Assembly: GCA_965223335.1 (NCBI GenBank) | Contig: OZ244991.1 | Span: 1,641,856 to 1,705,855, forward strand | Source: Thermodesulfobacteriota bacterium | GTDB taxonomy: Bacteria; Desulfobacterota_D; UBA1144; Nemesobacterales; UBA2774 | DNA: 64,000 bases | Direction of reading: 5' to 3' | Part shown: piece after piece, positions 17,345 through 58,649 of the stretch | How the letters are laid out: each line of letters begins with the position of its first letter | Numbering within the stretch: the stretch's first letter is position 1 | Notes under the pieces: model-generated | Seen by the model: the letters and a program-made list of their open reading frames with translations, nothing else | Told to the model about the DNA's origin: nothing | The model's database searches: none | Position numbers and translations under genes: made by a program

Positions 17345-18658
17345 TCAATAACTCAGGAATAATGACCATGTGATGATGTGACGGTCATATTCTAGCACTC
17401 TGTAAGTTGAGTCCTCGTTTGTAAAACTGTATGACATTGCCGCGTATATCGGTCCCGAGATATTACGTGTCAGCATCGCAAGGAAGTTGATCCTGTCGGT
17501 TTTCCTATCTCTTGGACCCTGGAAATCTGGGTATTTTTCTCTGCCGTACTCACCATTAATATCTGCTCTAATAGCCCAAAACAACGGTGCAGATATTCCG
17601 CCCCTTAACCTGTGGCCGTTAAAATTAAAGTTGAGTCCATCGGCGTTATTGTGCTGGAACTCGTACCCAAGCCACACATTTAGTGCACGCTCCATAAAAA
17701 AGAAGTACTGTAACAAACCAACACTGTTATTTACAGCATCACGTGACGAGATTGCGGGATCAAACCCCTCGTCCTCAAAATCATCATAGGCAAACCTGTA
17801 AAACGGTATTGTTAGGGTGTTGGGTGTGAACGCTGTATTTAGTGATGCGGTAATAGAGTGCGAGTTGCTAAACCTGTCATAATCGAGCAGTGCATAGTTA
17901 AAGTTATAGTTTAGTGTCGGGGAAAACGGTTTGCCGAATAGTGTGGTTGTGTAGTTAATGTATGGTGAAACGTTGAATGTAGATAGATTGAAATCTCTAA
18001 GTTCTCGTTTGGTATGTTGGCTCTGGTAGGTGTTGAAATTGGCACCCAGCACCCAATTCCCTAGGTTAGTGGTTCGTAACCCCAGGTTTAGGTACTCGGT
18101 GAACCTGAATGACTCGTCTTCGGTAAATGCCGCCCCACTGCCGTTTGGGTTTTCCGGCACATTGAAATCGAGTTGGGGTGCAATTTGTAGGAATACGTTA
18201 TAGAATCTGGGGCCACCGGGTCTCTCGAACTCGGTCTGCTGTTGTTCAATGGCCTCGACATACTTTCCTGCCCACTTCGCGTATAGAGATTCCGGGGCTA
18301 GCGTTTTTACCTTGTCAAAAAGCGCACGCGCCATATCGGTCTGGCTGATTTTGAAATATGTAGATGCCTTATAATAGATTATCGGTACGTTTTCGGGGTC
18401 TATCTTAAGCGCTTTATCATAAGTTTCGAGTGCCTTTTGATAGTTTTCCAGCCTGTGATAAGAAAGTCCGATATATCTTAATATTAGAGGGGCCTGGTCA
18501 GGGTATTGCTCAAGTAGAGTTGTGAATTCTGTTATCGCCTTATTATAATCACCGGATTTAAAGGCCTTCCCGGCTTCTGTATCTACTATATTAAGCTCTG
18601 CAAAAGCCGCGGGGGTAATCAGCGAGAGAATGAAAAATGTGTATATGAGTATCCGCAT
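17345..18658 (-). CDS. TPR-repeat outer-membrane beta-barrel protein
   Basis: Signal peptide MRILIYTFFILSLITPAAFA at an internal Met, so the track ORF is trimmed by 50 codons. Next come about 3 TPR motifs, then an aromatic- and Gly-rich region of alternating residues ending in ...WSLFLSY. A terminal aromatic residue is typical of outer-membrane barrels. Confidence 0.6.
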   Translation of the reverse strand: MRILIYTFFILSLITPAAFAELNIVDTEAGKAFKSGDYNKAITEFTTLLEQYPDQAPLILRYIGLSYHRLENYQKALETYDKALKIDPENVPIIYYKASTYFKISQTDMARALFDKVKTLAPESLYAKWAGKYVEAIEQQQTEFERPGGPRFYNVFLQIAPQLDFNVPENPNGSGAAFTEDESFRFTEYLNLGLRTTNLGNWVLGANFNTYQSQHTKRELRDFNLSTFNVSPYINYTTTLFGKPFSPTLNYNFNYALLDYDRFSNSHSITASLNTAFTPNTLTIPFYRFAYDDFEDEGFDPAISSRDAVNNSVGLLQYFFFMERALNVWLGYEFQHNNADGLNFNFNGHRLRGGISAPLFWAIRADINGEYGREKYPDFQGPRDRKTDRINFLAMLTRNISGPIYAAMSYSFTNEDSTYRVLEYDRHIITWSLFLSY

Positions 18659-18896
18659 ATCTTCATTTTTGATGTTACTTCCGAGGATTATATAATTTTT
18701 TGTGTCTGCTTGCAAATGGATATTAGAATTAATATCCTCTCTAATTAAGCAAGCAATATGTAGTATTAAGTTGCTGGAATATGGCTTGCATCGGATTGTT
18801 ATTTGCATAATTATCCGCCTGAGTAATGAGAAGAGGCTGTGTATATTTCCTCCTCAAAACTATTTCAAATAGTTAGTAGTTGTTAAGGGAGTAAAG

Positions 18897-18971: not shown

Positions 18972-19787
18972 CTATGAAAAGGCCTGATTTAATCTCTCAA
19001 TTTGCTCATCGGACAGGTGCCAGCCCGAGCCCCCGCAATTCTCAACAGTGCGCTCAACGCTGTTGGATTTCGGTATGGATACTACATTTGGATGGGAATT
19101 GCACCAGTTTAGAGAGACCTGTGCCATAGTCCTGCCAGTCTCTTTTGCAATGTCCTCAAGCACCTGCATTTTGCTGCTTACCCTGATTCGTGGTTTCTTG
19201 CAAAGCCGCCCGTCATCAAGGGGGGTATACGCGAGGATTGTTATGTTGCTCTTCTCGCAAAATGGTATTAAGTCTGTTTCTATGCCGCGGCTGTTTAGGT
19301 TGTAGAGGACCTGATTTGAGACTATCGGATGGTGGTTAAGATAGTGCATAGCGTTTAATAGTTCGTCTGTGTCGAAATTGCTCACACCCAGATATTTAAC
19401 CAGGCCCCGGTCGGCCAGTTTCTCTAAAGCTCGCATCGTATCCTGCAGAGGGTAGGTGTAATTGGGCCAGTGGATCTGATAGAGATCAATATAATCAGTA
19501 CCTAGTCGATACAAGCTGTCCTCGCATGCTCTCAATACATCATCATGTGCAAGGTGTCTGCCTGAGACCTTCGTTGCTAAAAACACGTCATCACGAATAC
19601 CTTTAATTGCTTCTCCTACCACGTCTTCAGTGTGATAACCCTCGGCAGTGTCTATGAGACTTGCACCCAGTTTTATCCCCTCTCTTAGAGTCTCTGCACC
19701 ACCCCGGTACCTCCATGTGCCGAGCCCGATCTCAGGGATCATAATCCCGGTATTACTTAGTTCTTTATGGTTCATCTCTGTACTCAT
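18972..19787 (-). CDS. Aldo/keto reductase family oxidoreductase
   Basis: AKR fold signatures (GLGTW, IDTAEGY, LGVSNF). Confidence 0.8.
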   Translation of the reverse strand: MSTEMNHKELSNTGIMIPEIGLGTWRYRGGAETLREGIKLGASLIDTAEGYHTEDVVGEAIKGIRDDVFLATKVSGRHLAHDDVLRACEDSLYRLGTDYIDLYQIHWPNYTYPLQDTMRALEKLADRGLVKYLGVSNFDTDELLNAMHYLNHHPIVSNQVLYNLNSRGIETDLIPFCEKSNITILAYTPLDDGRLCKKPRIRVSSKMQVLEDIAKETGRTMAQVSLNWCNSHPNVVSIPKSNSVERTVENCGGSGWHLSDEQIERLNQAFS

Positions 19788-19868: not shown

Positions 19869-19903
19869 AAAAACGGGGCTGTCTGTGAATTTAGACAACC
19901 CCG
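19869..19903 (-). terminator. Rho-independent terminator after the choice-of-anchor-Q gene
   Basis: 11-bp stem CGGGGCTGTCT/AGACAACCCCG with one mismatch and an 8-nt loop, followed on the minus strand by a TTTTT run. It starts 13 nt after the stop codon. Confidence 0.6.
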
Positions 19904-19915
19904 TATAGTCTCATT

Positions 19916-21223
19916 TTATGCTTCAATTTCATTTCTCCTCATCAGTCTTCTAGTTAATATCAAAGCAGGAATTAGAAGATAGAGAGGAAAAGCTGTAGAG
20001 GTTGTATTGGTTGCCAGTGAACATCCACCGCCACTTTCGCTTACGGCACCAAATACGTGCTCAACGGCACCCATATCACAGATCGAAAACCCATTACCGT
20101 CCCCGTCCTGCGGCCTTGCGGTGCCTCTTTGGTCGGTCCCGTTACATTCTGCCGGGTTATCGGCGCTATCAATAGCAGGGCTCCCTTCCAGTATCCCGTG
20201 TGTCATAGTGGGGCCGCCGTTATCTGCAAGTATGCCGATCATTGGGTTTGTGTTGGGCATATCAGTCGGGTCTATGAGGTTGCATAAAGTTGTGGAAATA
20301 TTGTTTCCATCCGACTGGATAAATATTCCACCGCAATCACTTGTGATGTTATTGGCAATTATACTACCCCATACTGAAGTCATACTTCCAGCTGCCTGAT
20401 AGATACCTCCGGCTGAACCAGATACGGTTATGTTAGATGCAATCGTTGTAAACTTTATGTCGAGCTCGGAGTCGTTATAAATTCCACCACCTAGGTCGGT
20501 TGCAGCGTTATTGCTTATAGTGACGTTCCTAAGTGTTAGAGCCCCACGGTTGTAAATACCGCCTCCCCTCTCATCACCAGGGTCTCCGGCAGTAATATTG
20601 TTGTCGATCACTGATTCAACAATTGTCCCTTCGGCATCAGGGCCGATATATATGCCTGCGCCTCTGGGAGCCATATTGCCTGTAATTGCTACCGTCTCGA
20701 GTACCACAATTTCAGCTGCATTTCTTATGGCACCACCGGCATTTCCCGAGTTGGCATTCGTGATCGTTAGGTCATAGAACTCAACCGTAATTTGATTTAA
20801 ACCATCACCATCTAAAAGATGGAAGATCTGCTTGGAGCCGTTTCCGTCGATAATCGTGGACTTAGTGCCTGATCCTTGGATAATGAGGTCATCTCTTATA
20901 TCCAGATCACCAACTGCTGCGAAGTTGTCCCCGCCCTCTAGTGTAAGGACATACGTCCCAGCGGGTATTGCTATCGTATCCTGACCCGCAAGATCGTTTG
21001 TTTCCATCACCGCAGCACGAAGTGTGCAGTTCCCGGCCCCGTCGTCACAAAGTGTATCACCCGGTGTATCATCGGGTGTGTCAATGTTGCTGTTTACAAC
21101 AAACATCACAGCATGTGAATGAGTTGCTCCTATCATCACTGATAGAGCAAATACTAAAAGCAACATGCCTCGTGCTATGTGCGAAGCATCAAAATCTTTA
21201 ATGCTCTCGAATAAGTTAATCAT
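19916..21223 (-). CDS. Secreted right-handed beta-helix protein with a choice-of-anchor-Q-like domain and a C-terminal sorting/anchor-like tail
   Basis: Start at MINLFESIK, RBS AAGGAGG. The track's upstream Met would contain the promoter motif. The protein has a signal peptide and a Gly/Asn-rich region of NxTxxxN beta-helix-like repeats. Its C-terminal block (LADNGGPT..GSPAID..C..TDQRG..RPQDGDGNG..CDMGAVE) matches what I recall of the choice-of-anchor Q domain. The tail is GGGC, a hydrophobic helix, then RRLMRR. Confidence 0.6.
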   Translation of the reverse strand: MINLFESIKDFDASHIARGMLLLVFALSVMIGATHSHAVMFVVNSNIDTPDDTPGDTLCDDGAGNCTLRAAVMETNDLAGQDTIAIPAGTYVLTLEGGDNFAAVGDLDIRDDLIIQGSGTKSTIIDGNGSKQIFHLLDGDGLNQITVEFYDLTITNANSGNAGGAIRNAAEIVVLETVAITGNMAPRGAGIYIGPDAEGTIVESVIDNNITAGDPGDERGGGIYNRGALTLRNVTISNNAATDLGGGIYNDSELDIKFTTIASNITVSGSAGGIYQAAGSMTSVWGSIIANNITSDCGGIFIQSDGNNISTTLCNLIDPTDMPNTNPMIGILADNGGPTMTHGILEGSPAIDSADNPAECNGTDQRGTARPQDGDGNGFSICDMGAVEHVFGAVSESGGGCSLATNTTSTAFPLYLLIPALILTRRLMRRNEIEA

Positions 21224-21259
21224 GGTTAATTCCTCCTTTAAAGCAAGTTTGAATGGTGA

Positions 21260-21285
21260 GTAACAATATGCGAGGTAAAGGTTCA
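21260..21285 (-). promoter_or_regulatory. ECF-type promoter TTGAACC-N15-GTTACTCAC (gene sense) for the CoA-Q beta-helix gene
   Basis: One of five copies of the same motif with identical spacing. Its -10 lies 36 nt upstream of the ATG. Confidence 0.6.
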
Positions 21286-21307
21286 ATATGTAACATATAT
21301 AATATAT

Positions 21308-21342
21308 AAAAAGCCCCTGGAGCTTTCATACTCCAAGGGCTT
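21308..21342 (-). terminator. Rho-independent terminator after the Cys-rich exoprotein gene
   Basis: 12-bp stem AAGCCCCTGGAG/CTCCAAGGGCTT with one mismatch and an 8-nt loop, followed on the minus strand by TTTTTATATA. Confidence 0.6.
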
Positions 21343-21379
21343 CTCTGTAAAGTCGAGTCTAACTTAAGGACTGTATTAA

Positions 21380-22216
21380 TTATGTTTCAGGTTTGTAAGG
21401 TGGGTTGGTCAACACACATTTTACCTTTGTTGTGGGTTTAACCTTACCGCTGTACTGTTTCGTGTTGCTGGTGCCGTTATAAACACAACTCGCGTTGAAT
21501 CTAACCAAGTCTACAGTAGTCGGCTGAAGTTGTATTGTGGCTTCTTTCTTGTAATCGCCGTTTCCCTTAGTCAGTGCATCTTTACACTGTTTCTCCACAG
21601 TGTTTAAACTCCATGGTTTAATCATAACGTTTTTATTGATGTGATCTTCAGTGTAGTTGCCTGTCGGGAATACAGCCTTAGGACCATTGGCCGTAGAGAT
21701 CTCAAAGTGCTTAATGCTTTGGTTCTCACCACACTGGAGTTTAGCGTTCCACTTTGTCTTCTCTTTTAAGTTTTTAGAAGCAAGTTTCATCACTGTGTAC
21801 TCATGACCGTTATGAGACTCGGATTTGAGTTTCATAGGCACTGTGCCATGAAGACCGTTCATCTGATAGATTGATGCTCCGCCGTGGCTTGGGAACGGGT
21901 TGGATGTATACCCGCTCTGTGAACTCTGATGTTTAGGTTTAACCAAAACAGCTTTCTTGGCCACAGGCTTTGTGGATTTTCTGCTACTCTTGATACGCTT
22001 TGGTGTAGTAGAAGAATCGGAGTTGTCTACGCCGTTGGTTGTGTAACCATAGTGGTCGCAGCAGTTAACCCATTTCCCATCAACCTTACAGAGTGCCAGT
22101 ATATCGTAAGGGCAACTCGCAAAGCTGTTGTTTGTACCCAATCCTAAAAACATAAATACCGCTAATGCTACTACTGAAAATACTTTCATGCTTTCAAATC
22201 TACTTAGATTAATCAT
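21380..22216 (-). CDS. Secreted Cys- and Lys-rich hypothetical protein (278 aa)
   Basis: Start at MINLSRFESMK after an AAGGAGG RBS, followed by a signal peptide. The mature protein has about 10 Cys, many Lys and no recognisable domain. Confidence 0.55.
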   Translation of the reverse strand: MINLSRFESMKVFSVVALAVFMFLGLGTNNSFASCPYDILALCKVDGKWVNCCDHYGYTTNGVDNSDSSTTPKRIKSSRKSTKPVAKKAVLVKPKHQSSQSGYTSNPFPSHGGASIYQMNGLHGTVPMKLKSESHNGHEYTVMKLASKNLKEKTKWNAKLQCGENQSIKHFEISTANGPKAVFPTGNYTEDHINKNVMIKPWSLNTVEKQCKDALTKGNGDYKKEATIQLQPTTVDLVRFNASCVYNGTSNTKQYSGKVKPTTKVKCVLTNPPYKPET

Positions 22217-22252
22217 GGTTAATTCCTCCTTGAAATCGTATTTGTACAGTGT

Positions 22253-22278
22253 GTAACAACAAAGGCGTAGATGGTTCA
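22253..22278 (-). promoter_or_regulatory. ECF-type promoter TTGAACC-N15-GTTACACAC for the Cys-rich exoprotein gene
   Basis: Second copy of the motif. Its 5' UTR and first codons are nucleotide-level homologous to those of the CoA-Q gene. Confidence 0.6.
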
Positions 22279-22353
22279 AAAAAATGATGATTAACCTAGA
22301 TAGAGTTACATAAGACCTTGCTTTCAAGACTGTGCCATAGATCAATACAAGAA

Positions 22354-22386
22354 CCCCGGTCTAGATTGGGAGTTTCCAGACCGGGG
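22354..22386 (-). terminator. Terminator hairpin after the CARDB-like gene
   Basis: 9-bp GC-rich stem CCCCGGTCT/AGACCGGGG with a 15-nt loop, followed on the minus strand by TTCTTGTATTG. Confidence 0.45.
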
Positions 22387-22430
22387 CAGGTTGGGGTATA
22401 GGAGGTGTGTATGAGATGCACACATTATTT

Positions 22431-22991
22431 TCACTTGTTTTTGTTTGCTAATAGTGACTTTCTATTGTCGTTTGAATCACAATCACCCTTAACCTTTACT
22501 CGTAACGCGAATGGCACATTATTTAATTCATTGGATTCGACTACCTCTTGGTTACTGTCTAATTTGATAACTACCTTTTGCTTCCCTGTTTCCAATGCTA
22601 TCGTGTTGTGAGTATTTATAACTTCGTCTGTGTCCAGACCTGAATAAGATTCCACCCTAGACCACGAACCGACGTTTATTCTGTATTCAAAACTATCACT
22701 TGAAGACTCTCCACGATTACTAATTTGTATCTGATAAGGAAAGACACATCTTCCATTAACCGAGTGTATAGCATCTTCTGCTCTCAATTGAATTGAACTT
22801 CCCCACTCACCAACAGTGTCTGCTATTCTAATGGAGTCTGAGCTTGTTATATCTGGCAGTTCGCTATTAATGCTACTTACCTCGTAATATTCCAAATCAT
22901 CAGCGAGTGTTTTACTGCCCATGACTTGTAGAGAGACTATTATTAAGAGAACTGTTAAAAATGTAATGTTTTGAGTGCTTAACCTTTTCAT
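22431..22991 (-). CDS. Small secreted CARDB-like (cell-adhesion-related) domain protein
   Basis: Signal peptide. The C-terminal ...VVESNELNNV... resembles the ESNExNN signature that closes CARDB domains. 186 aa. Confidence 0.45.
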   Translation of the reverse strand: MKRLSTQNITFLTVLLIIVSLQVMGSKTLADDLEYYEVSSINSELPDITSSDSIRIADTVGEWGSSIQLRAEDAIHSVNGRCVFPYQIQISNRGESSSDSFEYRINVGSWSRVESYSGLDTDEVINTHNTIALETGKQKVVIKLDSNQEVVESNELNNVPFALRVKVKGDCDSNDNRKSLLANKNK

Positions 22992-23024
22992 TCCAAACTC
23001 CTTTCAATTGATTTTGTATAGTAA

Positions 23025-23050
23025 GTAACGCGGGAGGTGGAAAAGGTTCA
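23025..23050 (-). promoter_or_regulatory. ECF-type promoter TTGAACC-N15-GTTACTTAC for the CARDB-like gene
   Basis: Third copy of the motif. Its -10 lies about 30 nt upstream of the ATG at 22991. Confidence 0.6.
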
Positions 23051-23067
23051 AAATTTTTTTGAGCAGA

Positions 23068-23095
23068 GGGGGCTCTATGTAGTCATAGAGCCCCC
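23068..23095 (-). terminator. Strong hairpin immediately after the M6-like metalloprotease gene; putative terminator/insulator
   Basis: Perfect 12-bp stem GGGGGCTCTATG/CATAGAGCCCCC with a 4-nt loop, starting 11 nt after the stop. The trailing sequence is an A-run then a T-run on the coding strand rather than a clean U-tract, so intrinsic termination is uncertain. Confidence 0.4.
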
Positions 23096-23105
23096 TTGAA
23101 AAGAT

Positions 23106-26100
23106 CTAGTTGGTGTTATTTAGTGAGAATGTGGAGTTGGTCAAGAAATCTGTTTTGATCCCAAGCAGGTTATATCCGCTTGGATCACCATTTGACCACA
23201 GCAATAGAGGTTCGCTACCTAGTGGCAGTGGGTCGCCTATGCTTAGCGGGCAAGATAATGTGCCTGCATCAAGCAGATCCATTCCGCCTACTGCTTGACC
23301 GAACAGTGTTTGTTTGAACTCTGCATAGTCGTCCCCTGAATCGTTGCTGATGAAATCATAGATGTGAGCAAAGTCCGGTTGTATAAGTCTAACACCTACT
23401 CTTACGTAGTTGCTCGCATGCTTGTTCAACCATTCATGATTCGGTATGCAGACAGGGTTCTGTAGAGGTTTACAGTCTGGTGCTACAGCGCCGATAGCCG
23501 ATTTGCAGGCATCATTAGGTTCTATTACATGGTACACAGCCAAGCCCGAGTCGTTGATGTTATAGTCGTAGAGAGGTGTGTTGATCGAGTTTTCTTGGAT
23601 TCTGGTCTCGAGCAGCACATATTCCAGCCCGTCATCATACCTGCGTGGGAGTATGTAGACCTTCTCACTCTGCTTCACATCACTCAGATCGTATTTATCA
23701 TTTTCCTCGATGACATGAGGTGTGACCCATCCAAGGTGTAGCTTGTGGAACCCATGAAGGTGAGGTGTTGCAAGGTCCTTACCGGTTTTAAATGTCATAA
23801 GCGATATCATATGAGGTGCAGTGTTCATATATCTGTTCTGACAGGTCTCACCCGGTGCCAGGTCCTCTTCGTCCGGGCAATCACTCATAAAGCTAGGTAG
23901 CGCAGAAAACTGTACTCCGTCATGCAGTCCTTTGTATCTTCCATACGCGTCATCGAGGCCTAGCCAATGGTGTGCAAGTTCGTGTGCGGCAACCATCATA
24001 TTCTGGATCTTGTCCGACTGATCAAGAGGTTCGGCTTTAAATATTAGGTTTAGGTGAACTGTCTCTGTAATCCTCACACCGTCCACACTCAGTGTTTCAT
24101 TATCTTCGTCACAGAAAGGTGCAAAGCTTGTCTTAATTGACGAGCCGGCGTTCCCACTCCTTGGGATGGCAACAATAATTCCCAATTCATCTGGCGTGAT
24201 CATTTCATCTTTATTTCTGTCATAGGATTTGAAGTCAATCATACCTTCGGCAAATTTGAGCGCTTCAGCATGAAGGGCATCAGAGCCTGATCCATAGGTA
24301 GCACCGTTTTCACAGTCAAAGTTCTCACTATCGAGATAATAGTTTTTATCGTTTGTGATTTGACCTGCGTTTGCAGCTGTGAAAATCCCGAGTGTGCCGG
24401 CTTTGTTAACCTGGAACCTGCCGCCTGAGTTGAGCATAAAATAGTCTTTTACACTCTGGAACCCGCCGTGCAGGAAGTCATCAACATCCACAAAGAACAT
24501 GGTGTCTGCAGGTGAATCTTCGATCTGGGGATCGATTATGATGGTGAGGAGCTCGCGGGATCCATATATAGGTTCTATTATGGACTCGTATTTCTTAGAA
24601 GCTCTTCCCATATTAGGTCCTTCTGCCAGGTCCGGGCCTATGCGGAGTTTTTTCTCGACTACCAGGTTAGCATCGTTGATATAGCCAGCAGGTGGAGTTG
24701 TAACACCGGCTTGCGTTACTCGGTATGCAACTCCTACTTCATAACCGCCTGCTTTAGGTGATAGCTCCTTGATACCAAATGTGTAACTGCCGCCGCCAGC
24801 ATGATTTACCTGTGGTTTAGTGTCGCCAGGGTTTTGGAATGTCAGTGTCGGGTAGTGGATGATTACTTCTTGATCCATTAGCGGGAAGCCGTCCAATGTA
24901 GGCACTATGAATATAGTCCCCTCTCCTGCGAATGCTCCGCTTAGTGTTACTGCTATATCCGATACTTCATTCACTTCAACATGTGTCGACAGATTAGCAA
25001 CCGGTGTGGTATGGCTCTCTGTGGAGCTTGTAAGCTCGGTCTGCGATACAACATCAAAAAAGTTGTCTTTGGAATTGTTCTCTTCTGTTTGTACTAACAC
25101 AGTCCATGCAGAAATTGTTCCTTTTGCCACAACATCAGTCTCGCTGCCTCTCCACTCGAACTTTACGTTATGCATTCCCTCTGGGAGGTCTTCTGCATTA
25201 AATACCACGCTTCTTGCCTCGGTATGATAGAGTCTTCCCGCCAATGCAATCTCTTTGGGATAGACCTCTTCGGCACCGTTATCAATTATCGCGCGGAGCA
25301 TAATGAAATCACCCTGCTCCATGCTTATGACGGATGAGAATGTAATAGCGGTTTCCGAGCCTTTAGGTACGTAGAAATTTATGTCGGCATTAGGCACGGG
25401 CGTCCAGTTCTTGGTCCCGATCTTAAGCTGTTCGGGTTCACCGTCGCCAGTGATGCCTTTTCCGGTTTTAACCTTAATCGAAGCGTTTCTGATGTAGGAA
25501 CTGCCGTTTGTTACATGCTCTGTTGAGTACTGTACCTGTACCGTGTGTATGCCTCTGTCTACCTCTGTTAAAAAGGTGAATGATTGACTCGGGGCCACAA
25601 GTACCTGGTCCATCCCGCCAGTAAGTGTGATCGGACCTGGGAGTGCCTCAACACCGTCTACGAGTACCCTTATTTGCAGGGGTTCATCTGTGGTGTCCGA
25701 TACATATGACATTGCCGAGAATGTAATCGCAGCTACGGTGTTATTTTCATTTACTACAAATTTGCTTGCGGCTCTCGGTAGATCTATAAACCCGTCACTG
25801 CCCTTTGGGAGTTTAATGAATTGATCAACCATCACTGGGAATTCCGGTGTGCCGCCGTCAACACATATTGTTTCTTTCTCGCCAGCATACGAGTATTTCT
25901 TGGTTTTACAGCCGATATGAGTTTCCGACCTGATCTGCATGCTGTCAGGTTCATTGCCATCGAACTCATACGGATTAGGTAAGAATCCGCCCGGACCTGG
26001 GCGGTTTACGCTTGATGATTTTTTCTGAGCCTCTGCGCTCACTGAAAACATAAGTACAACTACTAGAAGCACAAGCAACTGTAATATTTGCCTGCTTGTT

Positions 26101-26138
26101 CCTTGTTTGGATTTATTGTTGAGTGTAAGTCTTAACAT
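23106..26138 (-). CDS. Large secreted zinc metalloprotease, M6 (InhA)-like, about 1010 aa
   Basis: Start at ATG 26138, 6 nt after AGGAGG. The track ORF begins at an upstream TTG. Signal peptide present. HELAHHWLGLDDAYG matches the M6-family HExxHxxGxxDxY zinc-site pattern. The protein has long beta-rich N- and C-terminal extensions. Confidence 0.6.
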   Translation of the reverse strand: MLRLTLNNKSKQGTSRQILQLLVLLVVVLMFSVSAEAQKKSSSVNRPGPGGFLPNPYEFDGNEPDSMQIRSETHIGCKTKKYSYAGEKETICVDGGTPEFPVMVDQFIKLPKGSDGFIDLPRAASKFVVNENNTVAAITFSAMSYVSDTTDEPLQIRVLVDGVEALPGPITLTGGMDQVLVAPSQSFTFLTEVDRGIHTVQVQYSTEHVTNGSSYIRNASIKVKTGKGITGDGEPEQLKIGTKNWTPVPNADINFYVPKGSETAITFSSVISMEQGDFIMLRAIIDNGAEEVYPKEIALAGRLYHTEARSVVFNAEDLPEGMHNVKFEWRGSETDVVAKGTISAWTVLVQTEENNSKDNFFDVVSQTELTSSTESHTTPVANLSTHVEVNEVSDIAVTLSGAFAGEGTIFIVPTLDGFPLMDQEVIIHYPTLTFQNPGDTKPQVNHAGGGSYTFGIKELSPKAGGYEVGVAYRVTQAGVTTPPAGYINDANLVVEKKLRIGPDLAEGPNMGRASKKYESIIEPIYGSRELLTIIIDPQIEDSPADTMFFVDVDDFLHGGFQSVKDYFMLNSGGRFQVNKAGTLGIFTAANAGQITNDKNYYLDSENFDCENGATYGSGSDALHAEALKFAEGMIDFKSYDRNKDEMITPDELGIIVAIPRSGNAGSSIKTSFAPFCDEDNETLSVDGVRITETVHLNLIFKAEPLDQSDKIQNMMVAAHELAHHWLGLDDAYGRYKGLHDGVQFSALPSFMSDCPDEEDLAPGETCQNRYMNTAPHMISLMTFKTGKDLATPHLHGFHKLHLGWVTPHVIEENDKYDLSDVKQSEKVYILPRRYDDGLEYVLLETRIQENSINTPLYDYNINDSGLAVYHVIEPNDACKSAIGAVAPDCKPLQNPVCIPNHEWLNKHASNYVRVGVRLIQPDFAHIYDFISNDSGDDYAEFKQTLFGQAVGGMDLLDAGTLSCPLSIGDPLPLGSEPLLLWSNGDPSGYNLLGIKTDFLTNSTFSLNNTN

Positions 26139-26171
26139 TTTATTCCTCCTCAATGTTTGTTTGATAGGTAA

Positions 26172-26197
26172 GTAACACGAGGAGGTAAAATGGTTCA
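26172..26197 (-). promoter_or_regulatory. ECF-type promoter CTGAACC-N15-GTTACTTAC for the M6-like metalloprotease gene
   Basis: Fourth copy of the motif, about 35 nt upstream of the ATG. Confidence 0.6.
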
Positions 26198-26298
26198 GAT
26201 TACTTAAAAACTTTTTGGTTGATACAATTAGCTTCTGCTACTGATTAGCGTAACAAGTTAAGATCATTGAATAAATACAGAGTGTGATAAAAGCAGGT

Positions 26299-28023
26299 TC
26301 AGTTGGCTCTGGCTTCTTCGGTGCCTTCATTTAATAAGTTCAATGCACCCAAAGCGTCTATTCTGCCTTTACCGTATTCGTTATCCTTTCCGGGTTTACC
26401 CAAGTCAAGCGCACTTTGCGTAAGGAGGTATTTAACCTCAGTCGAGGTGAGAGCCGGGTTTTGCTGCAGAAGTAGTGCAATAGCACCTGTGACGTGGGCT
26501 GCCGCCATAGAAGTGCCCGAGGTTAGATGCCACTTATTACCTGGTGCAGGGCAGTAGATCTCCACCCCAGGTGCCGAGAGATCTATGTATGATCCTCTGG
26601 TCGATGAACGGTATAGATTATCTTTGGCATCCGTCGCAGTCACAGCTATGACTTCTCCCAAAGCCGCCGGATACACAGTCTTACCATTCTTACCACCATT
26701 ACCCGCAGCGGCTACAACAATGACTCCTTTTTCTACCGCTTTCCTGATCATTTTAGCGATTAGATGATCTTTCGGGCCGCCAAGGCTGAGGTTTATAACC
26801 TGAGCACTGTTTAAGATCGAATAATCAATTGATTTTGCAAGTGAAGTACTGCTGCAAATTGTATTTTTAGCCTCTGTTGAGTCTGACCAGCATGCCCTCA
26901 CGGAAATGATATCAACATCGGGTGATATGCCGAGTGCACCTGTACCGTTGTTAGGAGTAGATGCAATAATCCCGGCGATTGATGTGCCGTGCAGTTCATC
27001 TGTAAAACTCCCGTTGCCTTTGTCCACAAAATCCCTTCTCAGTTTTACCGCATTACTGAGTGCACTGTGATTATAATCTACACCGGTATCAATGACGGCC
27101 ACTCTTACCCCGTTTCCTGTCGAAATTCTGTGAGCCTTATCGGCGTTGATCTTATTCACACCATACTGGATTGAACTGGTTGCGAGCCCTTCGTATAGAT
27201 ACACAGGCTGGGTCGCTAACACACGAGCATCATCAATAAGTGAGGTAATCACAACCGGGACTGTTCTAGAATCCGGGATGTTATATACGACTAGCACAGC
27301 ATTGATGCTGTTTAATCTATAAGCTTCCCTTAGAGTCAGCTCATTTTTACTTCCTATTTCAGTTGCTGTGCTCCGAGCATTCGGGCTGTCTTCTATAAGT
27401 ATCAATACCTGATCGGGTATATAACCGTCCTTTGCTATTCCGGACAAAGTTTCGGGGGTCGGATCCTTAAACACGGGGGCGGTGAGTTGTTCCTGCTCTA
27501 TAACAGGCTCAATCAAAGTTGGGTCGTCCGGCAATTGAGTAGGTGATGTAAACTGGGGATCAGGGACTACGGGATTAATCCCCGAGGTCGGGTCGGGGTC
27601 AGAAGACCCAGGTTGATTACTCGGGGTTTCAGGCTCAGGTACCGGGGGTAGGGGGTTTGTGGGTTGAGTGGTGTCAGGATTCCTGGGAGGCTTCGGGTTG
27701 TCAGGTCTCGGGGGCTTAGGTTCATTCGGAGGAAGCACAATATCTTGGCTCGGAAGATTCGGTATTGTCGGTGGTTTGTTCGGGGGTTGAGGATATGTAG
27801 GCCCCGAATTGCTAGGGTTTCGGTTAGGATTAGGTTTCGGCGGTGTAGGCAGGTCATCACCCACATTAGGACTATAGCTGCTAGGGTATCGTGGTATTGG
27901 CTTTGATGAGTTGGACTGAGCAACCACAATAGCCTCTGCAGTTAAATTCAAGGCGAGCGCATTTGAATAACCGCTCAGAGCTATTAAAAGTGCTGCCGTT
28001 ACAGTTGCTGTGATAGCTCTCAT
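26299..28023 (-). CDS. Secreted S8 subtilisin-like serine protease with a roughly 120-aa proline-rich N-terminal region
   Basis: Signal peptide, catalytic triad motifs VAVIDTGVD (Asp), HGTSIAGII (His) and GTSMAAAHVTG (Ser), and a PxxP-rich low-complexity N-terminal region. It sits 35 nt downstream of the anti-sigma gene with no promoter motif between them. Confidence 0.85.
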   Translation of the reverse strand: MRAITATVTAALLIALSGYSNALALNLTAEAIVVAQSNSSKPIPRYPSSYSPNVGDDLPTPPKPNPNRNPSNSGPTYPQPPNKPPTIPNLPSQDIVLPPNEPKPPRPDNPKPPRNPDTTQPTNPLPPVPEPETPSNQPGSSDPDPTSGINPVVPDPQFTSPTQLPDDPTLIEPVIEQEQLTAPVFKDPTPETLSGIAKDGYIPDQVLILIEDSPNARSTATEIGSKNELTLREAYRLNSINAVLVVYNIPDSRTVPVVITSLIDDARVLATQPVYLYEGLATSSIQYGVNKINADKAHRISTGNGVRVAVIDTGVDYNHSALSNAVKLRRDFVDKGNGSFTDELHGTSIAGIIASTPNNGTGALGISPDVDIISVRACWSDSTEAKNTICSSTSLAKSIDYSILNSAQVINLSLGGPKDHLIAKMIRKAVEKGVIVVAAAGNGGKNGKTVYPAALGEVIAVTATDAKDNLYRSSTRGSYIDLSAPGVEIYCPAPGNKWHLTSGTSMAAAHVTGAIALLLQQNPALTSTEVKYLLTQSALDLGKPGKDNEYGKGRIDALGALNLLNEGTEEARAN

Positions 28024-28058
28024 GTCTCTTCTCCCTCGTTTTATACTATAACCTATAT

Positions 28059-28751
28059 TTAATAGCCCTCAGTGGCTGATTTAATTATTTCGGTATTCGC
28101 ACTAAGTTCTTGAATGGTATCGGCTGCTTGCTCGTCAGGTTCTAGCTCTATTACATATAAACCACCCGCTTTCGGTCCATCCACAATTTTTCCCCTGATT
28201 TCCTCAAGCACCTCTCCTATAGCTTCTATGCTAGCGTCTTCTTGAAACACAACCAACAACTTTGGCCCGGCAGTTTGCACTAGCTCTGTATCTCCGCTTA
28301 AGACCTTGTAATCATTGGTCTCCTCGGGTGTGCCGAAGTAAAGTTTGCCTGCAAGCAGAGCGATCAACCCAAACTGCACAAGCAGTATGGCCATGGCCCC
28401 TGCGGGTATTGCGGTGGGTAATGATATAGCCGGCATCAAGTTTTTTATACTTGACCAAATGGTTTCGGTTTCTTCATCTCTGGCGTAGCTGACATCGGTG
28501 TCTGTTTCTTCGATCCTCTGCATAATGCTTTCTTCCATATTCTCGAACTCGGCAGATATCTCTTTATCCACAAGCTCATTGGTTTCCATAACTGCTTCCC
28601 TTATAACCTCGAGTCCTATGATCTCAGAGCTGCACTCTTCGCATTCGTGGATGTGCTCTGTAACAAGTGCTTTTTCTTCTGTGTCCAATGTACCGTTTAG
28701 GTACCATGGCAAAAGCAGGCTGATCTCTTCATGTGTAGTATTGTTGGTCAT
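28059..28751 (-). CDS. Anti-sigma factor, ZAS-type (zf-HC2, HxxxCxxC), single-pass membrane protein
   Basis: EHIHECEEC motif near the N-terminus, one TM helix (AGAMAILLVQFGLIALLAGKL) and a C-terminal extracytoplasmic domain. Its ATG overlaps the sigma-factor stop (ATGA). Confidence 0.7.
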   Translation of the reverse strand: MTNNTTHEEISLLLPWYLNGTLDTEEKALVTEHIHECEECSSEIIGLEVIREAVMETNELVDKEISAEFENMEESIMQRIEETDTDVSYARDEETETIWSSIKNLMPAISLPTAIPAGAMAILLVQFGLIALLAGKLYFGTPEETNDYKVLSGDTELVQTAGPKLLVVFQEDASIEAIGEVLEEIRGKIVDGPKAGGLYVIELEPDEQAADTIQELSANTEIIKSATEGY

Positions 28752-29338
28752 TGCAGTGTCTCCTCTGTGGTTATTCCCAATCCTGTAAGTTTTTCTTTCA
28801 ATTTTTCTTTTGCGTAATACATTCGGGTCTTCACAGTGTTTACAGGGCAGTCCATTATCTCGGCAATTTCAGGGTATGATAGCCCCTCATAGAATGTAAG
28901 CTCGAGTACCGTCCTGTGTTCGGGGGAAAGTTGTTCCAGAGCTATTTTCATGCGCTCTGCTCTATCTTTTTTCTCCACGATTTCCTCCACGTTATCTTCC
29001 GACGCAGGGATCCGTGAAAACTCCTCGGGGTCCATTGCAGTCGGCGATTTTTTTCTCAGTTCGTTCATTGTTTTGTTGTGTGCTATACCGAAAATCCATG
29101 TAAGCACCTTTGATTTCCCTTTAAAGTTTTTGGCACTGTTCCAGACCTCAAACATTACATCGTTTGTGATCTCTTCGGTCATTTTGTTGTCTTTTGTTGT
29201 CTTATAAACAAACGAAAAGACCTGCCGAACGTATTTTTGATAAAGGGTTTTAAACGCCTCTTTATTGCCGTTTGCGATTTCCTCTATCAGTTCCAAATCC
29301 GAAGGTTCCAAAACCCTCTCCATTATCTCTGGCCTCAC
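28748..29338 (-). CDS. ECF (group 4) sigma-70 family RNA polymerase sigma factor
   Basis: A 196-aa protein with sigma region 2 (FKTLYQKYVRQVFSFVYK..) and region 4 (LEQLSPEHRTVLELTFYEGLSYPEIAEIM). It is translationally coupled to the anti-sigma gene. Confidence 0.85.
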   Translation of the reverse strand: MRPEIMERVLEPSDLELIEEIANGNKEAFKTLYQKYVRQVFSFVYKTTKDNKMTEEITNDVMFEVWNSAKNFKGKSKVLTWIFGIAHNKTMNELRKKSPTAMDPEEFSRIPASEDNVEEIVEKKDRAERMKIALEQLSPEHRTVLELTFYEGLSYPEIAEIMDCPVNTVKTRMYYAKEKLKEKLTGLGITTEETLQ

Positions 29339-29359
29339 AAATGTATTTTCAAACTGTTA

Positions 29360-29385
29360 GTAACACCGAGTACACAGATGGTTCA
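29360..29385 (-). promoter_or_regulatory. Autoregulatory ECF-type promoter TTGAACC-N15-GTTACTAAC upstream of the ECF sigma gene
   Basis: Fifth copy of the motif, 21 nt upstream of the sigma ATG. An extra TTCGAAC half-site lies just upstream of the -35. Confidence 0.6.
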
Positions 29386-36566: not shown

Positions 36567-37829
36567 ATGTTAAAAAGGATTTTTATAATATTTTCATTTG
36601 CTCTTCTATCATTTTCATTAAGTTCAGGGGCACAGATTGTTTTACCCCCTGTTTCAGGCCCGATAATAGAAAAACTGCCCATAGTCGTAACCAATCTGAC
36701 CAGTGTTGGGGCAGCTGACCAAAAGGCAGACGAGTTCATAGATGTGTTTGTGAACGATCTGCGCAACGCTGCATTGTTCGAAGTAAGCACAGGCAATATC
36801 TCGGGCACGGGCAGCGATAACATTAATTTCCAGAGTTTATCGACCAGCGGGGCCGAGTACCTTGTGACCGGGCAGTACCAATCCACAGGAAGCAGGATCA
36901 AATTTGCCGTAAGACTCTTTGATGTCAAAGATGGCAAACCGATCCTGGGCCGCTCCTACGAGGCCAGCTCGGGCAGGGTGCGCGAGGCCGCCCACAGGTT
37001 TGCCAACCAGGTGATGAAGGAACTAACAGGCATTGACGGCTTCTTCACATCCAAGATCGCTTTTGTACTCGGCAGCAAAAGAAACAGGAATCTATTTTTG
37101 ATGGATTACGACGGATTCAACATACGACAGCTCACCAAACACAGCTCCTTAATGATGTCGCCTCACTGTTCTCCCAACGGTCAAATGATTGTGTTTAACT
37201 CAGATAAGGTTTGGGATCAGGACCTCTACCTTATTACGCTTGGAGGGAAGGTCACCGAAAAAAGGCTCACCCGTGCATTTAAGCTCGAACAGAGCCCCGA
37301 GTGGTCCCCAAGCGGCGGTCAAATTGCTTTTAGCGCAAACGGCGATATATATGTAGCCAGTGCCAGCGGTAAGGGTGCCAGGAACCTAACCAGGTCCCGC
37401 TCCATCGATGTGTCTCCCACATGGTCTCCCGACGGCAGCAAAATAGCGTTTGTATCGGACCGCTCCGGATCGCCTCAAATATACGTTATGAGTTTGGGCG
37501 GCGGCGGTGCAAAGCGGATCACCTCTGGAGGGTACAGCACCGACCCCTCGTGGTCACCCAGCAGCGAGGTAAACAGGATCGCATTCGTTAAGGTCGAGGG
37601 CAGTGGAGCCAACATATATACGGTCGACCCCTTTGGCGGTAGCGAGCAGAGGCTTACATCGGGGGCAGGCAGAAACGAAAACCCATCGTGGTCTCCCGAC
37701 GGGCACTACATTGCGTTTAGCTCGACCCGTGACGCTGCAAAAAACATCTACCTGATGTATCTAAACGGCGAGAATCAGAAGCGGCTTAGCAAAGGGGGCG
37801 GCAAATCGTTCCCAACGTGGTGTAAGTAA
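36567..37829 (+). CDS. tolB: TolB-family periplasmic protein (TolB N-domain plus WD40-like/PD40 beta-propeller)
   Basis: Signal peptide, TolB-type N-terminal domain and repeated PD40 units (WSPDG..IAF). It is not embedded in a tol-pal cluster in this window, so it could be a paralogue. Confidence 0.7.
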   Translation: MLKRIFIIFSFALLSFSLSSGAQIVLPPVSGPIIEKLPIVVTNLTSVGAADQKADEFIDVFVNDLRNAALFEVSTGNISGTGSDNINFQSLSTSGAEYLVTGQYQSTGSRIKFAVRLFDVKDGKPILGRSYEASSGRVREAAHRFANQVMKELTGIDGFFTSKIAFVLGSKRNRNLFLMDYDGFNIRQLTKHSSLMMSPHCSPNGQMIVFNSDKVWDQDLYLITLGGKVTEKRLTRAFKLEQSPEWSPSGGQIAFSANGDIYVASASGKGARNLTRSRSIDVSPTWSPDGSKIAFVSDRSGSPQIYVMSLGGGGAKRITSGGYSTDPSWSPSSEVNRIAFVKVEGSGANIYTVDPFGGSEQRLTSGAGRNENPSWSPDGHYIAFSSTRDAAKNIYLMYLNGENQKRLSKGGGKSFPTWCK

Positions 37830-58571: not shown

Positions 58572-58649
58572 CGGGGTGTAGCTCAGATTGGCTAGAGCGT
58601 TGCGTTCGGGACGCAGAGGCCGCCGGTTCAAGTCCGGCCACCCCGACCA
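58572..58649 (+). tRNA. tRNA-Pro (anticodon CGG)
   Basis: Cloverleaf folded by hand: acceptor CGGGGTG/CACCCCG, D-arm GCTC/GAGC, anticodon stem TTGCG/CGCAG with loop TTCGGGA, T-arm GCCGG-TTCAAGT-CCGGC, discriminator A and an encoded CCA. Confidence 0.85.

Follow-up and report, generated by a model that had tools for sequence, protein, structure and literature searches.

Five copies of a bipartite motif, probably promoters of one ECF sigma factor, in an exported-protein gene cluster of a Thermodesulfobacteriota bacterium

Analysis of a 64-kb stretch of DNA from a Thermodesulfobacteriota bacterium (64,000 nucleotides, referred to below as the window) revealed five copies of a bipartite motif, TGAACC-N15-GTTAC, in a single gene cluster (Table 1). 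Our analysis suggests that these are, with high probability, promoters for the ECF sigma factor of the same cluster. TGAACC would then serve as the -35 and GTTACTnAC as the -10. A single-pass membrane anti-sigma factor would hold the sigma factor inactive; upon its inactivation the sigma factor would transcribe its own operon (sigma factor, anti-sigma factor and S8 subtilase), a positive autoregulation, and would also transcribe four separately terminated units encoding the M6-like, CARDB, Cys-rich beta-sandwich and choice-of-anchor-Q proteins. An ECF sigma regulon of this sort is an ordinary kind of bacterial switch. It may extend beyond the cluster, because the scan covered 64 kb of the genome.

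Table 1. Coordinates of the genes, putative promoters and hairpins of the cluster, numbered along the window.
Feature	Position	Strand	Description
Promoter copy 1	29360..29385	-	TTGAACC-N15-GTTACTAAC, 36 nt 5' of sigma ATG; exact match; putative autoregulatory promoter
ECF sigma factor (P0001)	28748..29323	-	191 aa; Pfam Sigma70_r2, Sigma70_r4_2, Sigma70_ECF; TIGR02937 112.7 bits (cut-off 42.9)
Anti-sigma factor	28059..28751	-	230 aa; N-terminal zf-HC2, one transmembrane helix (~117-138), C-terminal subtilase-prodomain/I9-like domain (~161-230)
S8 subtilase	26299..28023	-	574 aa; signal peptide, proline-rich spacer, prodomain-like region, catalytic domain; Pfam Peptidase_S8 (PF00082) 176.7 bits
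Promoter copy 2	26172..26197	-	CTGAACC-N15-GTTACTTAC, 33 nt 5' of M6-like gene
M6-domain metalloprotease-like exported protein	23106..26138	-	1010 aa; TIGR03296 79.1 bits (cut-off 110.8); HELAH at 719
Hairpin 3' of M6 gene	23067..23096	-	13 bp, GC-rich; dG -25.5 kcal/mol, z -6.3; imperfect U tract
Promoter copy 3	23025..23050	-	TTGAACC-N15-GTTACTTAC, 33 nt 5' of CARDB gene
CARDB-domain exported protein	22431..22991	-	186 aa; Pfam CARDB 27.2 bits (cut-off 22.7)
Hairpin 3' of CARDB gene	22353..22387	-	13 bp, then T-rich stretch; fold of 22290-22433: dG -36.7 kcal/mol, z -2.1
Promoter copy 4	22253..22278	-	TTGAACC-N15-GTTACACAC, 36 nt 5' of Cys-rich gene
Cys-rich exported protein	21380..22216	-	278 aa, 8 Cys; beta-sandwich C-terminal domain
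Intrinsic terminator 3' of Cys-rich gene	21308..21345	-	16-bp stem and T run, z -4.3; canonical
Promoter copy 5	21260..21285	-	TTGAACC-N15-GTTACTCAC, 36 nt 5' of choice-of-anchor-Q gene
Choice-of-anchor-Q beta-helix protein	19916..21223	-	435 aa; signal peptide; NF041518 71.5 bits (cut-off 25)
Intrinsic terminator closing the cluster	19873..19904	-	12-bp stem and TTTTT, z -6.0; canonical

Exactly five matches to TGAACC-N15-GTTAC were found in the window, all on the minus strand and all intergenic. Dinucleotide-preserving shuffles of the window gave a mean of 0.03 matches, and none of 100 shuffles reached five. The initial annotation had reported five copies with a 15-nt spacer upstream of five units, which these counts confirm, and had divided the -35 block into TTGAACC at four sites and CTGAACC at one, as was found. 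The genes, said to lie within 20-40 nt of the -10, start 33-36 nt from the end of GTTAC at all five sites. Its wording of the -10 as GTTAC followed by t/c-n-AC holds at four sites and fails at the Cys-rich unit, where A follows GTTAC (the blocks 3' of GTTAC are TAAC, TTAC, TTAC, ACAC and TCAC). A similar density of the motif elsewhere had been named as evidence that would count against a regulon; relaxed regular expressions and a position weight matrix (PWM) revealed no further credible copy over the other ~54 kb of the window, the sole additional PWM match being at 36902 with 15.3 bits, compared with 32-34 bits at the five sites. The copy upstream of the sigma gene has the layout of an ECF-type autoregulatory promoter: its -35 is of AAC type, its -10 of GTT/CGT type, and about 16 nt separate them.

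Comparison with related genomes revealed the motif 5' of the same genes in seven orthologous clusters from Thermodesulfobacteriota-like MAGs. It precedes the sigma gene in loci L001-L004 and L081-L083 and the M6-like gene in all seven. The PWM, trained on the five window sites and applied to the seven loci at a threshold of at least 14 bits, gave 39 matches, every one on the coding strand; 36 of them precede genes for the sigma factor, M6, CARDB, CARDB-2, Cys-rich or choice-of-anchor-Q proteins, and the background was at most 35 matches in 2.5 Mb. Across the orthologous clusters the two blocks and the distance between them are conserved, and the sequences of the spacer and flanks are not. The information profile of the 36 sites outside the window likewise showed conservation of tTGAACCtTT and GyTACTnAC and none of the spacer or upstream flank, with a further conserved tCAAA 4-5 nt downstream of the 9-nt -10 block. 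Because this block and tCAAA together exceed the usual length of an ECF -10, a second factor may also bind at the -10 region.

Analysis of 76 more distant sigma homologues (39-52% identity) from Acidobacteriota, Alpha- and Gammaproteobacteria, Methylomirabilota and Myxococcota showed that the 6-mer seen most often 5' of the sigma gene is TGAACC, present in 57 of the 76. A promoter-like site with TGAACY precedes the sigma gene in 66 of them, and 13 loci have additional copies 3' of the S8 gene or on the divergent strand. The -35 hexamer thus tracks the sigma family across phyla, and the -10 varies by clade. The proposal of the initial annotation that one ECF sigma factor governs the exported-protein units is supported both by this tracking and by the seven orthologous clusters.

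The sigma factor belongs to the ECF (group 4) sigma-70 proteins, possessing only the sigma-2 and sigma-4 domains. It scored below the cut-off of every named NCBIfam equivalog (RpoE, SigW, SigK, SigM, SigX, SigY and others), the top model being PRK12515 (168.5 bits against a cut-off of 236), and an ECF group matching it was not found in the main text of PMC7826278. The ATG of the anti-sigma gene overlaps the sigma stop codon (ATGA) and its product carries a zf-HC2 domain (32.1 bits), which points to a co-transcribed cognate anti-sigma factor; in 72 of 75 homologous loci the sigma and anti-sigma genes lie next to each other. Since the S8 gene begins only 35 nt beyond the anti-sigma gene and the gap holds neither motif nor hairpin, it is read as the third gene of a predicted three-gene operon. 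The S8 gene had been left out of the first unit in the initial annotation. It follows the anti-sigma gene, completing the triad, in 64 of 75 loci from several phyla, a co-occurrence of prodomain-like domain and S8 gene that lies within one gene family and is not phylogenetically independent. No hairpin was found after the S8 gene at the end of the sigma unit (z +1.1), and because the operon has no terminator, read-through into the M6 gene is likely.

Profile matches to Pfam and NCBIfam models confirmed the gene identities given earlier. The S8 subtilase is a member of Peptidase S8, with its Asp/His/Ser triad (D312, H345 and S505) and oxyanion Asn (N411) intact; it scored 224.5 bits against the mycosin equivalog, below the cut-off of 278.75. 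The M6-like protein retains HExxH (HELAH), scores under the TIGR03296 cut-off and has no Pfam match; its orthologues are present in seven loci at 55-58% identity. CARDB orthologues and paralogues occur in six loci. The Cys-rich family is restricted to the clade, with only 18 homologue clusters, all at least 58% identical; the AF2 model of the window protein has a pLDDT of ~90 over residues 110-275, and its fold comparison gave no informative match. The choice-of-anchor-Q protein contains the domain of that name and is not the RbtA (rhombotarget A) equivalog, which carries a GlyGly-CTERM signal (36.8 bits against 295). Its Gly-rich, hydrophobic and basic C-terminal tail (GGGCS...hydrophobic...RRLMRR) resembles a sorting signal, but no sorting-signal model matched it.

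Three of the products had been described as proteases or protease-like. Only two are, the S8 subtilase and the M6-like protein, and no protease signature was found in the CARDB, Cys-rich or choice-of-anchor-Q proteins. The products of the regulon units do bear N-terminal export signals, and the term 'secreted' that had been applied to them is to be read as referring to these signals. Strong hairpins follow all four downstream units, as had been claimed, with dG of -21 to about -28 kcal/mol and z of -2.1 to -6.3; the canonical hairpin-plus-T-run form is seen at two of them, and the U tract is imperfect at the strong hairpin of the CARDB gene.

Two other explanations of the motif itself were weighed. 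The motif might be bound by some regulator other than the adjacent ECF sigma factor, be it a transcription factor or a further sigma factor, and the unusually long conserved 3' block with its further tCAAA, as well as the occurrence of TGAACCTTT-N12-GTTACTAAC beside ECF sigma genes only 24-30% identical, would suit such a regulator. This is hardly probable in view of the strict orientation, the fixed and non-conserved 15-nt spacer and the fixed 33-36 nt to the start codons; AAC and GTT 16 nt apart are standard ECF geometry, the motif precedes the sigma gene itself, its -35 hexamer follows the sigma family across phyla, and the region shows no excess of sigma-70-like promoters (12, with 19 expected). 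The five copies might instead be remnants of a duplicated promoter/5'UTR cassette that no longer share regulation, to which the RBS and first codons common to units 4 and 5 (AAGGAGGAATTAACCATGATTAA) would correspond. Spacers and flanks vary between the copies, however, and the blocks are kept at orthologous positions although the proteins have diverged to 40-60% identity, which argues for purifying selection on the blocks and leaves this explanation extremely improbable.

The anti-sigma factor belongs to a family of ~2,350 representatives (50% clustering), and the conserved part of the protein is its extracytoplasmic prodomain-like domain. This C-terminal domain was overlooked in the initial annotation. 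Pfam PF22148 (fervidolysin N-terminal prodomain) matches residues 148-230 alone with 23.8 bits (threshold 21) and the full-length protein with 21.2 bits, above the gathering threshold of 21. The homologue in locus L076 scores 31.6 bits and five of 10 distant homologues match at E <= 0.05; the match is marginal in most anti-sigma homologues. The fold of the domain is beta-alpha-beta-beta-alpha-beta and can be superposed on those of known prodomains and inhibitors.

What inactivates the anti-sigma factor is a separate matter, on which our reading is tentative. Subtilases degrade their own prodomains. The C-terminal domain could be a prodomain/I9-like module on which the co-transcribed S8 subtilase docks and which it degrades, a proposal that we hold at somewhat below even confidence. 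Binding or cleavage of this domain by the S8 subtilase would release the sigma factor, the subtilase acting as a dedicated site-1 protease that precedes intramembrane cleavage of the anti-sigma factor; the switch would thereby signal that active protease is present and, once thrown, would hold itself on. The domain would be a decoy prodomain, its free C-terminal tail lying in the S8 active-site cleft as in I9 inhibitors. That a self-encoded S8 subtilase acts as dedicated site-1 protease of a protease-sensing, self-locking switch throughout the family is a bolder and more doubtful extension. It would apply to a large uncharacterised ECF family of Acidobacteriota, Thermodesulfobacteriota, Proteobacteria, Myxococcota and Methylomirabilota, in which lineages would have attached their own local exported-protein regulons to the module by spreading the promoter. 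No description of an ECF trigger via a prodomain-like sensor and a co-encoded subtilase was found in the literature searched.

Alternatively, the promoters are real and the S8 subtilase is merely a conserved first output, the C-terminal domain sensing something else, for example a peptide, an envelope protein or misfolded cargo, and site-1 cleavage falling to generic proteases (DegS-, Prc- or PrsW-like, or signal peptidase). We consider this a serious possibility, though one that we doubt. The hhalign comparison of the domain with the prodomain of its cognate S8 subtilase was weak (probability 4.5%, similarity not significant), five loci retain the domain although the nearest 4 kb contain no S8 gene, and in many ECF systems the principal target gene simply shares a transcript with the sigma gene (PMC7826278). 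An output role does not account as readily for the specific Pfam assignment of the domain to subtilase prodomains, with scores that clear the threshold in the window protein and one distant homologue, for its position at the extreme C-terminus, resembling a cleaved prodomain, or for the triad being kept across several phyla. It is improbable that the anti-sigma factor is instead a redox-sensing ZAS protein like RsrA or RshA, in which thiol oxidation would lead to zinc loss and free the sigma factor. HxxxCxxC and zf-HC2 are present in the window protein and the RsrA equivalog model matches weakly, at 16.1 bits against a cut-off of 62.5. The motif cysteines are missing from three of 10 close orthologues, which argues against zinc or redox release as the conserved trigger, and a membrane anchor and a conserved extracytoplasmic domain set the protein apart from the soluble, redox-sensing RsrA. 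The analogy to SigR- and SigH-type ZAS systems drawn in the initial annotation is therefore weak, extending to HxxxCxxC in the window protein and to the GGAAT/AAC...GTT promoter geometry shared with SigR/RsrA and SigH/RshA.

The canonical ECF systems with a membrane anti-sigma factor and regulated proteolysis are sigma-E/RseA of E. coli (DegS and RseP) and sigma-W/RsiW of B. subtilis (PrsW and RasP). The window system resembles them in having a sigma factor of sigma-2 and sigma-4 domains co-transcribed with a single-pass anti-sigma factor with an N-terminal anti-sigma domain, and an AAC -35/GTT -10 promoter before the sigma operon and targets. Unlike theirs, its sensor resembles a subtilase prodomain and its operon includes a subtilase gene, and no partner of DegS or PrsW type was found here. 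Compared with subtilase propeptides and I9 inhibitors such as POIA1 (PDB 1V5I), the domain differs in its fusion partner, an anti-sigma factor instead of a protease or a free inhibitor.

In sigma-V/RsiV of Bacillus and Clostridioides the anti-sigma factor is a lysozyme receptor; binding of this host-derived enzyme licenses site-1 cleavage, performed by signal peptidase (PMC4183432, PMC5014341). Direct binding of an enzyme by the extracytoplasmic domain of the anti-sigma factor would, by analogy, be common to that system and our proposal; the partner proposed here is a self-encoded, co-transcribed subtilase, and there is no sequence relationship. Sigma-I/RsgI of Clostridium thermocellum is not an ECF system, and RsgI senses polysaccharide through carbohydrate-binding modules and autoproteolyses (PMC10328401). 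That system and the one in the window both have anti-sigma sensor modules related to the degradative machinery under control and target secreted hydrolases, the module here being protease-related. The cluster had been called not a described named system; ECF control of secreted proteases has a precedent in SigU/RsuA of Streptomyces coelicolor, where, as summarised in PMC6295645, ECF activation raises secretion of many proteins, secreted proteases included. The SigU regulon is dispersed and experimentally defined, whereas the one described here is compact, clustered and motif-defined; the sigma and anti-sigma families also differ, with no specific match.

The five promoters would constitute a clean, compact ECF regulon in an uncultivated lineage, and the motif tTGAACCtTT-N11/12-GyTACTnAC could serve as an orthogonal sigma/promoter pair. 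If the subtilase is only an output, the cluster is simply another ECF system whose regulon is local. The proposed trigger, if true, would be a new way of activating ECF sigma factors and would explain how thousands of related systems of soil and sediment bacteria sense the state of their own extracellular proteolysis.

Scanning of the 64-kb window revealed exactly five copies of TGAACC-N15-GTTAC, the candidate ECF promoter in which TGAACC is the -35 and GTTAC the -10 block. They lie where the initial annotation had placed them and, as it had claimed, all five are on the minus strand. The mean number of copies in shuffled sequence was 0.03, and none of 100 shuffles reached five. Neither relaxed patterns nor a position weight matrix (PWM) yielded another credible copy in the other ~54 kb of the window. 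All five copies are intergenic, and the short distance proposed between -10 block and gene was confirmed: the end of GTTAC lies 33-36 nt from a start codon at every copy, and each of these start codons has a Shine-Dalgarno sequence. The -35 block reads TTGAACC in four copies and CTGAACC in one, as described; the t/c-n-AC proposed to follow GTTAC holds at four sites (TAAC, TTAC, TTAC and TCAC) but not at the fifth (ACAC). Sigma-70 promoters showed no enrichment in the scan.

Features of the cluster and its surroundings
Feature	Coordinates	Strand	Description
ECF sigma factor	28748-29323	minus	191 aa; Sigma70_r2, Sigma70_r4_2, Sigma70_ECF; TIGR02937 at 112.7 bits
Anti-sigma factor		minus	230 aa; zf-HC2; ATG overlaps the sigma stop codon
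S8 subtilase		minus	35 nt past the anti-sigma gene; no motif in front
M6-domain protein		minus	1010 aa; HELAH
CARDB protein		minus	Next after the M6-domain gene
Cys-rich protein		minus	278 aa; eight Cys residues
Choice-of-anchor-Q beta-helix protein		minus	Last gene of the cluster
Region of the extended 3' block (GyTACTnAC, 9 nt) and tCAAA, five sites	29352-29359; 26164-26171; 23017-23024; 22245-22252; 21252-21259; each with ~5 nt more downstream		
RBS and start, Cys-rich unit	22212-22234		AAGGAGGAATTAACCATGATTAA
RBS and start, choice-of-anchor-Q unit	21219-21241		AAGGAGGAATTAACCATGATTAA
Anti-sigma tail	28059-28070		...SATEGY
S8 spacer	~27469-27903		Residues 41-185
Choice-of-anchor-Q C-terminal tail	19916-20030		GGGCSLATNTTSTAFPLYLLIPALILTRRLMRR
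Aldo-keto reductase gene	18972-19787		
TPR gene	17345-18808		
tRNA-Pro(CGG)	58572-58649		Sole RNA gene in the window (ARAGORN, Rfam)

Strong folds (z -2.1 to -6.3) follow each of the four downstream units, in agreement with the hairpins initially reported, two of the four being canonical terminators. Sequence 3' of the S8 gene has no fold (z +1.1). Because hairpins lie 3' of the last four genes and none lies 3' of S8, the layout is one three-gene operon of sigma, anti-sigma and S8, with probable read-through into the M6 gene, and four insulated single-gene units. An Rfam search of the cluster gave no match. The cluster is flanked by housekeeping genes: hisD, hisC, lnt, lgt and a DsbA-like gene on one side, and aldo-keto reductase and TPR protein genes on the other.

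All non-cytoplasmic products carry a plausible predicted N-terminal signal peptide, as had been proposed. The description of the products as a protease battery was overstated, since only two of them are proteases. In the S8 sequence the catalytic Asp, His and Ser and the oxyanion Asn are intact, and a ~145-residue spacer with 32% proline connects the signal peptide to the prodomain-like region. Such a spacer is unusual for a secreted subtilase; within the envelope it might serve as a tether or to keep domains apart. No homologues of the Cys-rich protein were found outside the clade, and its predicted structure is a generic beta-sandwich without an informative match. The sequence of the choice-of-anchor-Q tail resembles GlyGly-CTERM or another sorting signal; sorting-signal models gave no match to it.

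Sigma-factor homologues were gathered and their loci then fetched for comparison. Seven loci of Thermodesulfobacteriota-like MAGs encode sigma factors 63-76% identical to that of the window and have in common the gene order sigma, anti-sigma, S8, M6, CARDB, second CARDB-like, Cys-rich, choice-of-anchor-Q and TPR. The PWM, trained on the window's five sites only and applied at a threshold of at least 14 bits, gave 39 matches in these loci, all on the coding strand and 36 of them preceding orthologous genes; its background was at most 35 matches in 2.5 Mb of other sequence. Alignment of the 36 non-window sites on the motif revealed high information only at tTGAACCtTT, GyTACTnAC, tCAAA and the ribosome-binding site; neither the upstream flank nor the 11-12 nt spacer is conserved. 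This pattern is the one expected of a bipartite promoter under selection rather than of a repeat.

The tCAAA element is conserved 4-5 nt past the GyTACTnAC block at the window sites and all orthologous sites. Together these elements exceed the length of the usual ECF -10 element; the extension could represent a discriminator, a second binding site, or sequence at the transcription start or in the first transcribed bases. The ribosome-binding site and start are identical in the Cys-rich and choice-of-anchor-Q units, and choice-of-anchor-Q orthologues keep GGAGGAATWAACCATGA. Since both units have this sequence in common, it suggests that a cassette comprising promoter and 5' end was copied. One orthologous cluster (L002) has an extra choice-of-anchor-Q/CSLREA paralogue at 20141-20543; this paralogue has its own motif copy, and the predicted regulon grows through duplication of genes together with their promoter. 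The second CARDB-like gene of the orthologous clusters is absent from the window. The TPR gene lies immediately 3' of the choice-of-anchor-Q gene in orthologous loci, and in the window the aldo-keto reductase gene separates the two. Two orthologous clusters (L082 and L083) encode IPTL-CTERM proteins upstream of the sigma gene.

Beyond the clade, 76 homologous loci with sigma factors of 39-52% identity were compared, from Acidobacteriota, Stella and other Alphaproteobacteria, Gammaproteobacteria, Methylomirabilota and Myxococcota. In the sequence preceding the sigma gene, TGAACC is the commonest hexamer (57 of 76 loci), and TGAACY occurs within 260 nt upstream of this gene in 66; the -10 block varies with clade, as GTGACTTAC, GCGACTGAG or GGACATAC. 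In 13 of these loci, extra motif copies occur immediately 3' of S8 or face the opposite way on the divergent strand, and the genes behind them encode signal-peptide proteins. Because 13 distant loci hold further copies, a small predicted local regulon is a trait of the sigma family, with its largest version among the loci compared in the window's clade.

In L011, L036, L043, L048, L079 and many Thermoanaerobaculia loci, the sigma promoter is immediately preceded by an inverted -35 block (GGTTCA), which has a -10-like block to itself on the opposite strand. The arrangement looks like back-to-back divergent promoters that would also drive lipoprotein and exported-protein genes. The motif-preceded gene after S8 in L008 (~7945 onward), L064 (~14095 onward) and L091 codes for a large exported protein, and these proteins have in common a C-terminal 'NWDxxGQPKNKxxFxxFL...' motif; they are a putative conserved target family, which the window's cluster lacks. 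When metagenome contigs were scanned for the exact pattern, 93 loci were obtained, ~30 of which belong to this cluster type or to related sigma loci. Most other matches are without downstream CAAA/SD/ATG context and look like chance, and a few candidates outside the cluster (L142, L155 and L103) encode short or unrelated ORFs. Eight metagenome contigs (L104, L106, L107, L115, L120, L122, L138 and L152) contain TGAACCTTT-N12-GTTACTAAC followed by a GGCAAATG-like sequence, near ECF sigma genes whose identity to that of the window is only 24-30%; a nearly identical promoter may be in use in another ECF lineage.

The anti-sigma factor evolves fast, with ~40% identity where the sigma factors have ~75%. 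Retained across the family are the anti-sigma domain with LLPWYxNGTL, a single transmembrane helix and the C-terminal domain. HxxxCxxC is missing from three of ten close orthologues, and this loss argues against a conserved redox trigger such as the comparison with ZAS-type systems had implied. A search with the full-length anti-sigma profile against a library clustered at 50% identity gave 2,353 representatives at E <= 1e-10, mostly in end-to-end alignments; given this number and the recurrent order of sigma, anti-sigma and S8, the module is widespread.

It is highly probable that the sigma factor transcribes from all five promoters, activating its own operon and co-inducing the four downstream units. 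The putative sensor is the C-terminal domain of the anti-sigma factor, modelled as beta-alpha-beta-beta-alpha-beta (pLDDT ~82). The isolated domain scores 23.8 bits against PF22148, the Pfam family of the fervidolysin N-terminal prodomain (cut-off 21), and a Myxococcota homologue scores 31.6 bits. The unrelated ACT, S6 and FtsX-ECD domains give similar scores because the fold is generic. Between the domain and the prodomain region of the cognate S8 no BLASTP match was found and hhalign gave a weak, non-significant one; a recent origin as a paralogue of the S8 prodomain was rejected on these grounds, and the two have only a fold class in common.

Prodomains and I9 'temporary inhibitors' are bound and degraded by subtilases. 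By analogy, we tentatively propose that S8 might bind the prodomain-like sensor of the anti-sigma factor and then degrade it; regulated proteolysis of the anti-sigma factor would then begin, setting up a self-reinforcing switch. The main rival explanation is that S8 is merely the conserved first output and that the C-terminal domain senses something else. Among 75 loci with enough downstream sequence, the order sigma, anti-sigma, S8 occurs in 64, and the C-terminal domain and the S8 gene occur together in 54. In 62 homologues a median of 8 residues separates the end of the domain from the C-terminus, and three orthologues of the window's protein end in ...EEAY. The subtilisin propeptide ends in ...HAY with Tyr at P1, and by this analogy the ...SATEGY and ...EEAY ends would fit a product-like tail docked in the subtilase active site.

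All named NCBIfam equivalogs score under cut-off for the window's sigma factor, and a PDB sequence search placed it only generically among RpoE, AlgU and SigK. Nothing relevant was found in literature on the motif or on ECF groups with subtilase context, and the re-classification paper on ECF sigma factors mentions in its main text no group matching the sigma/anti-sigma/subtilase module. ECF54 has subtilase neighbours but no anti-sigma factor (PMC8999054), and was rejected for this reason.

The system would work like the canonical ECF/anti-sigma pathways sigma-E/RseA and sigma-W/RsiW. Its closest logical analogues are sigma-V/RsiV, in which an enzyme is bound by the anti-sigma factor (PMC4183432), and sigma-I/RsgI, in which sensor modules match the regulated hydrolases (PMC10328401); SigU/RsuA is a precedent for ECF control of secreted proteases (PMC6295645). 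A repeated-promoter regulon by itself belongs to an already known type. No description of a prodomain-like anti-sigma factor with an operon-encoded subtilase was found in the literature searched, and as far as this literature shows, the combination constitutes an undescribed variant.
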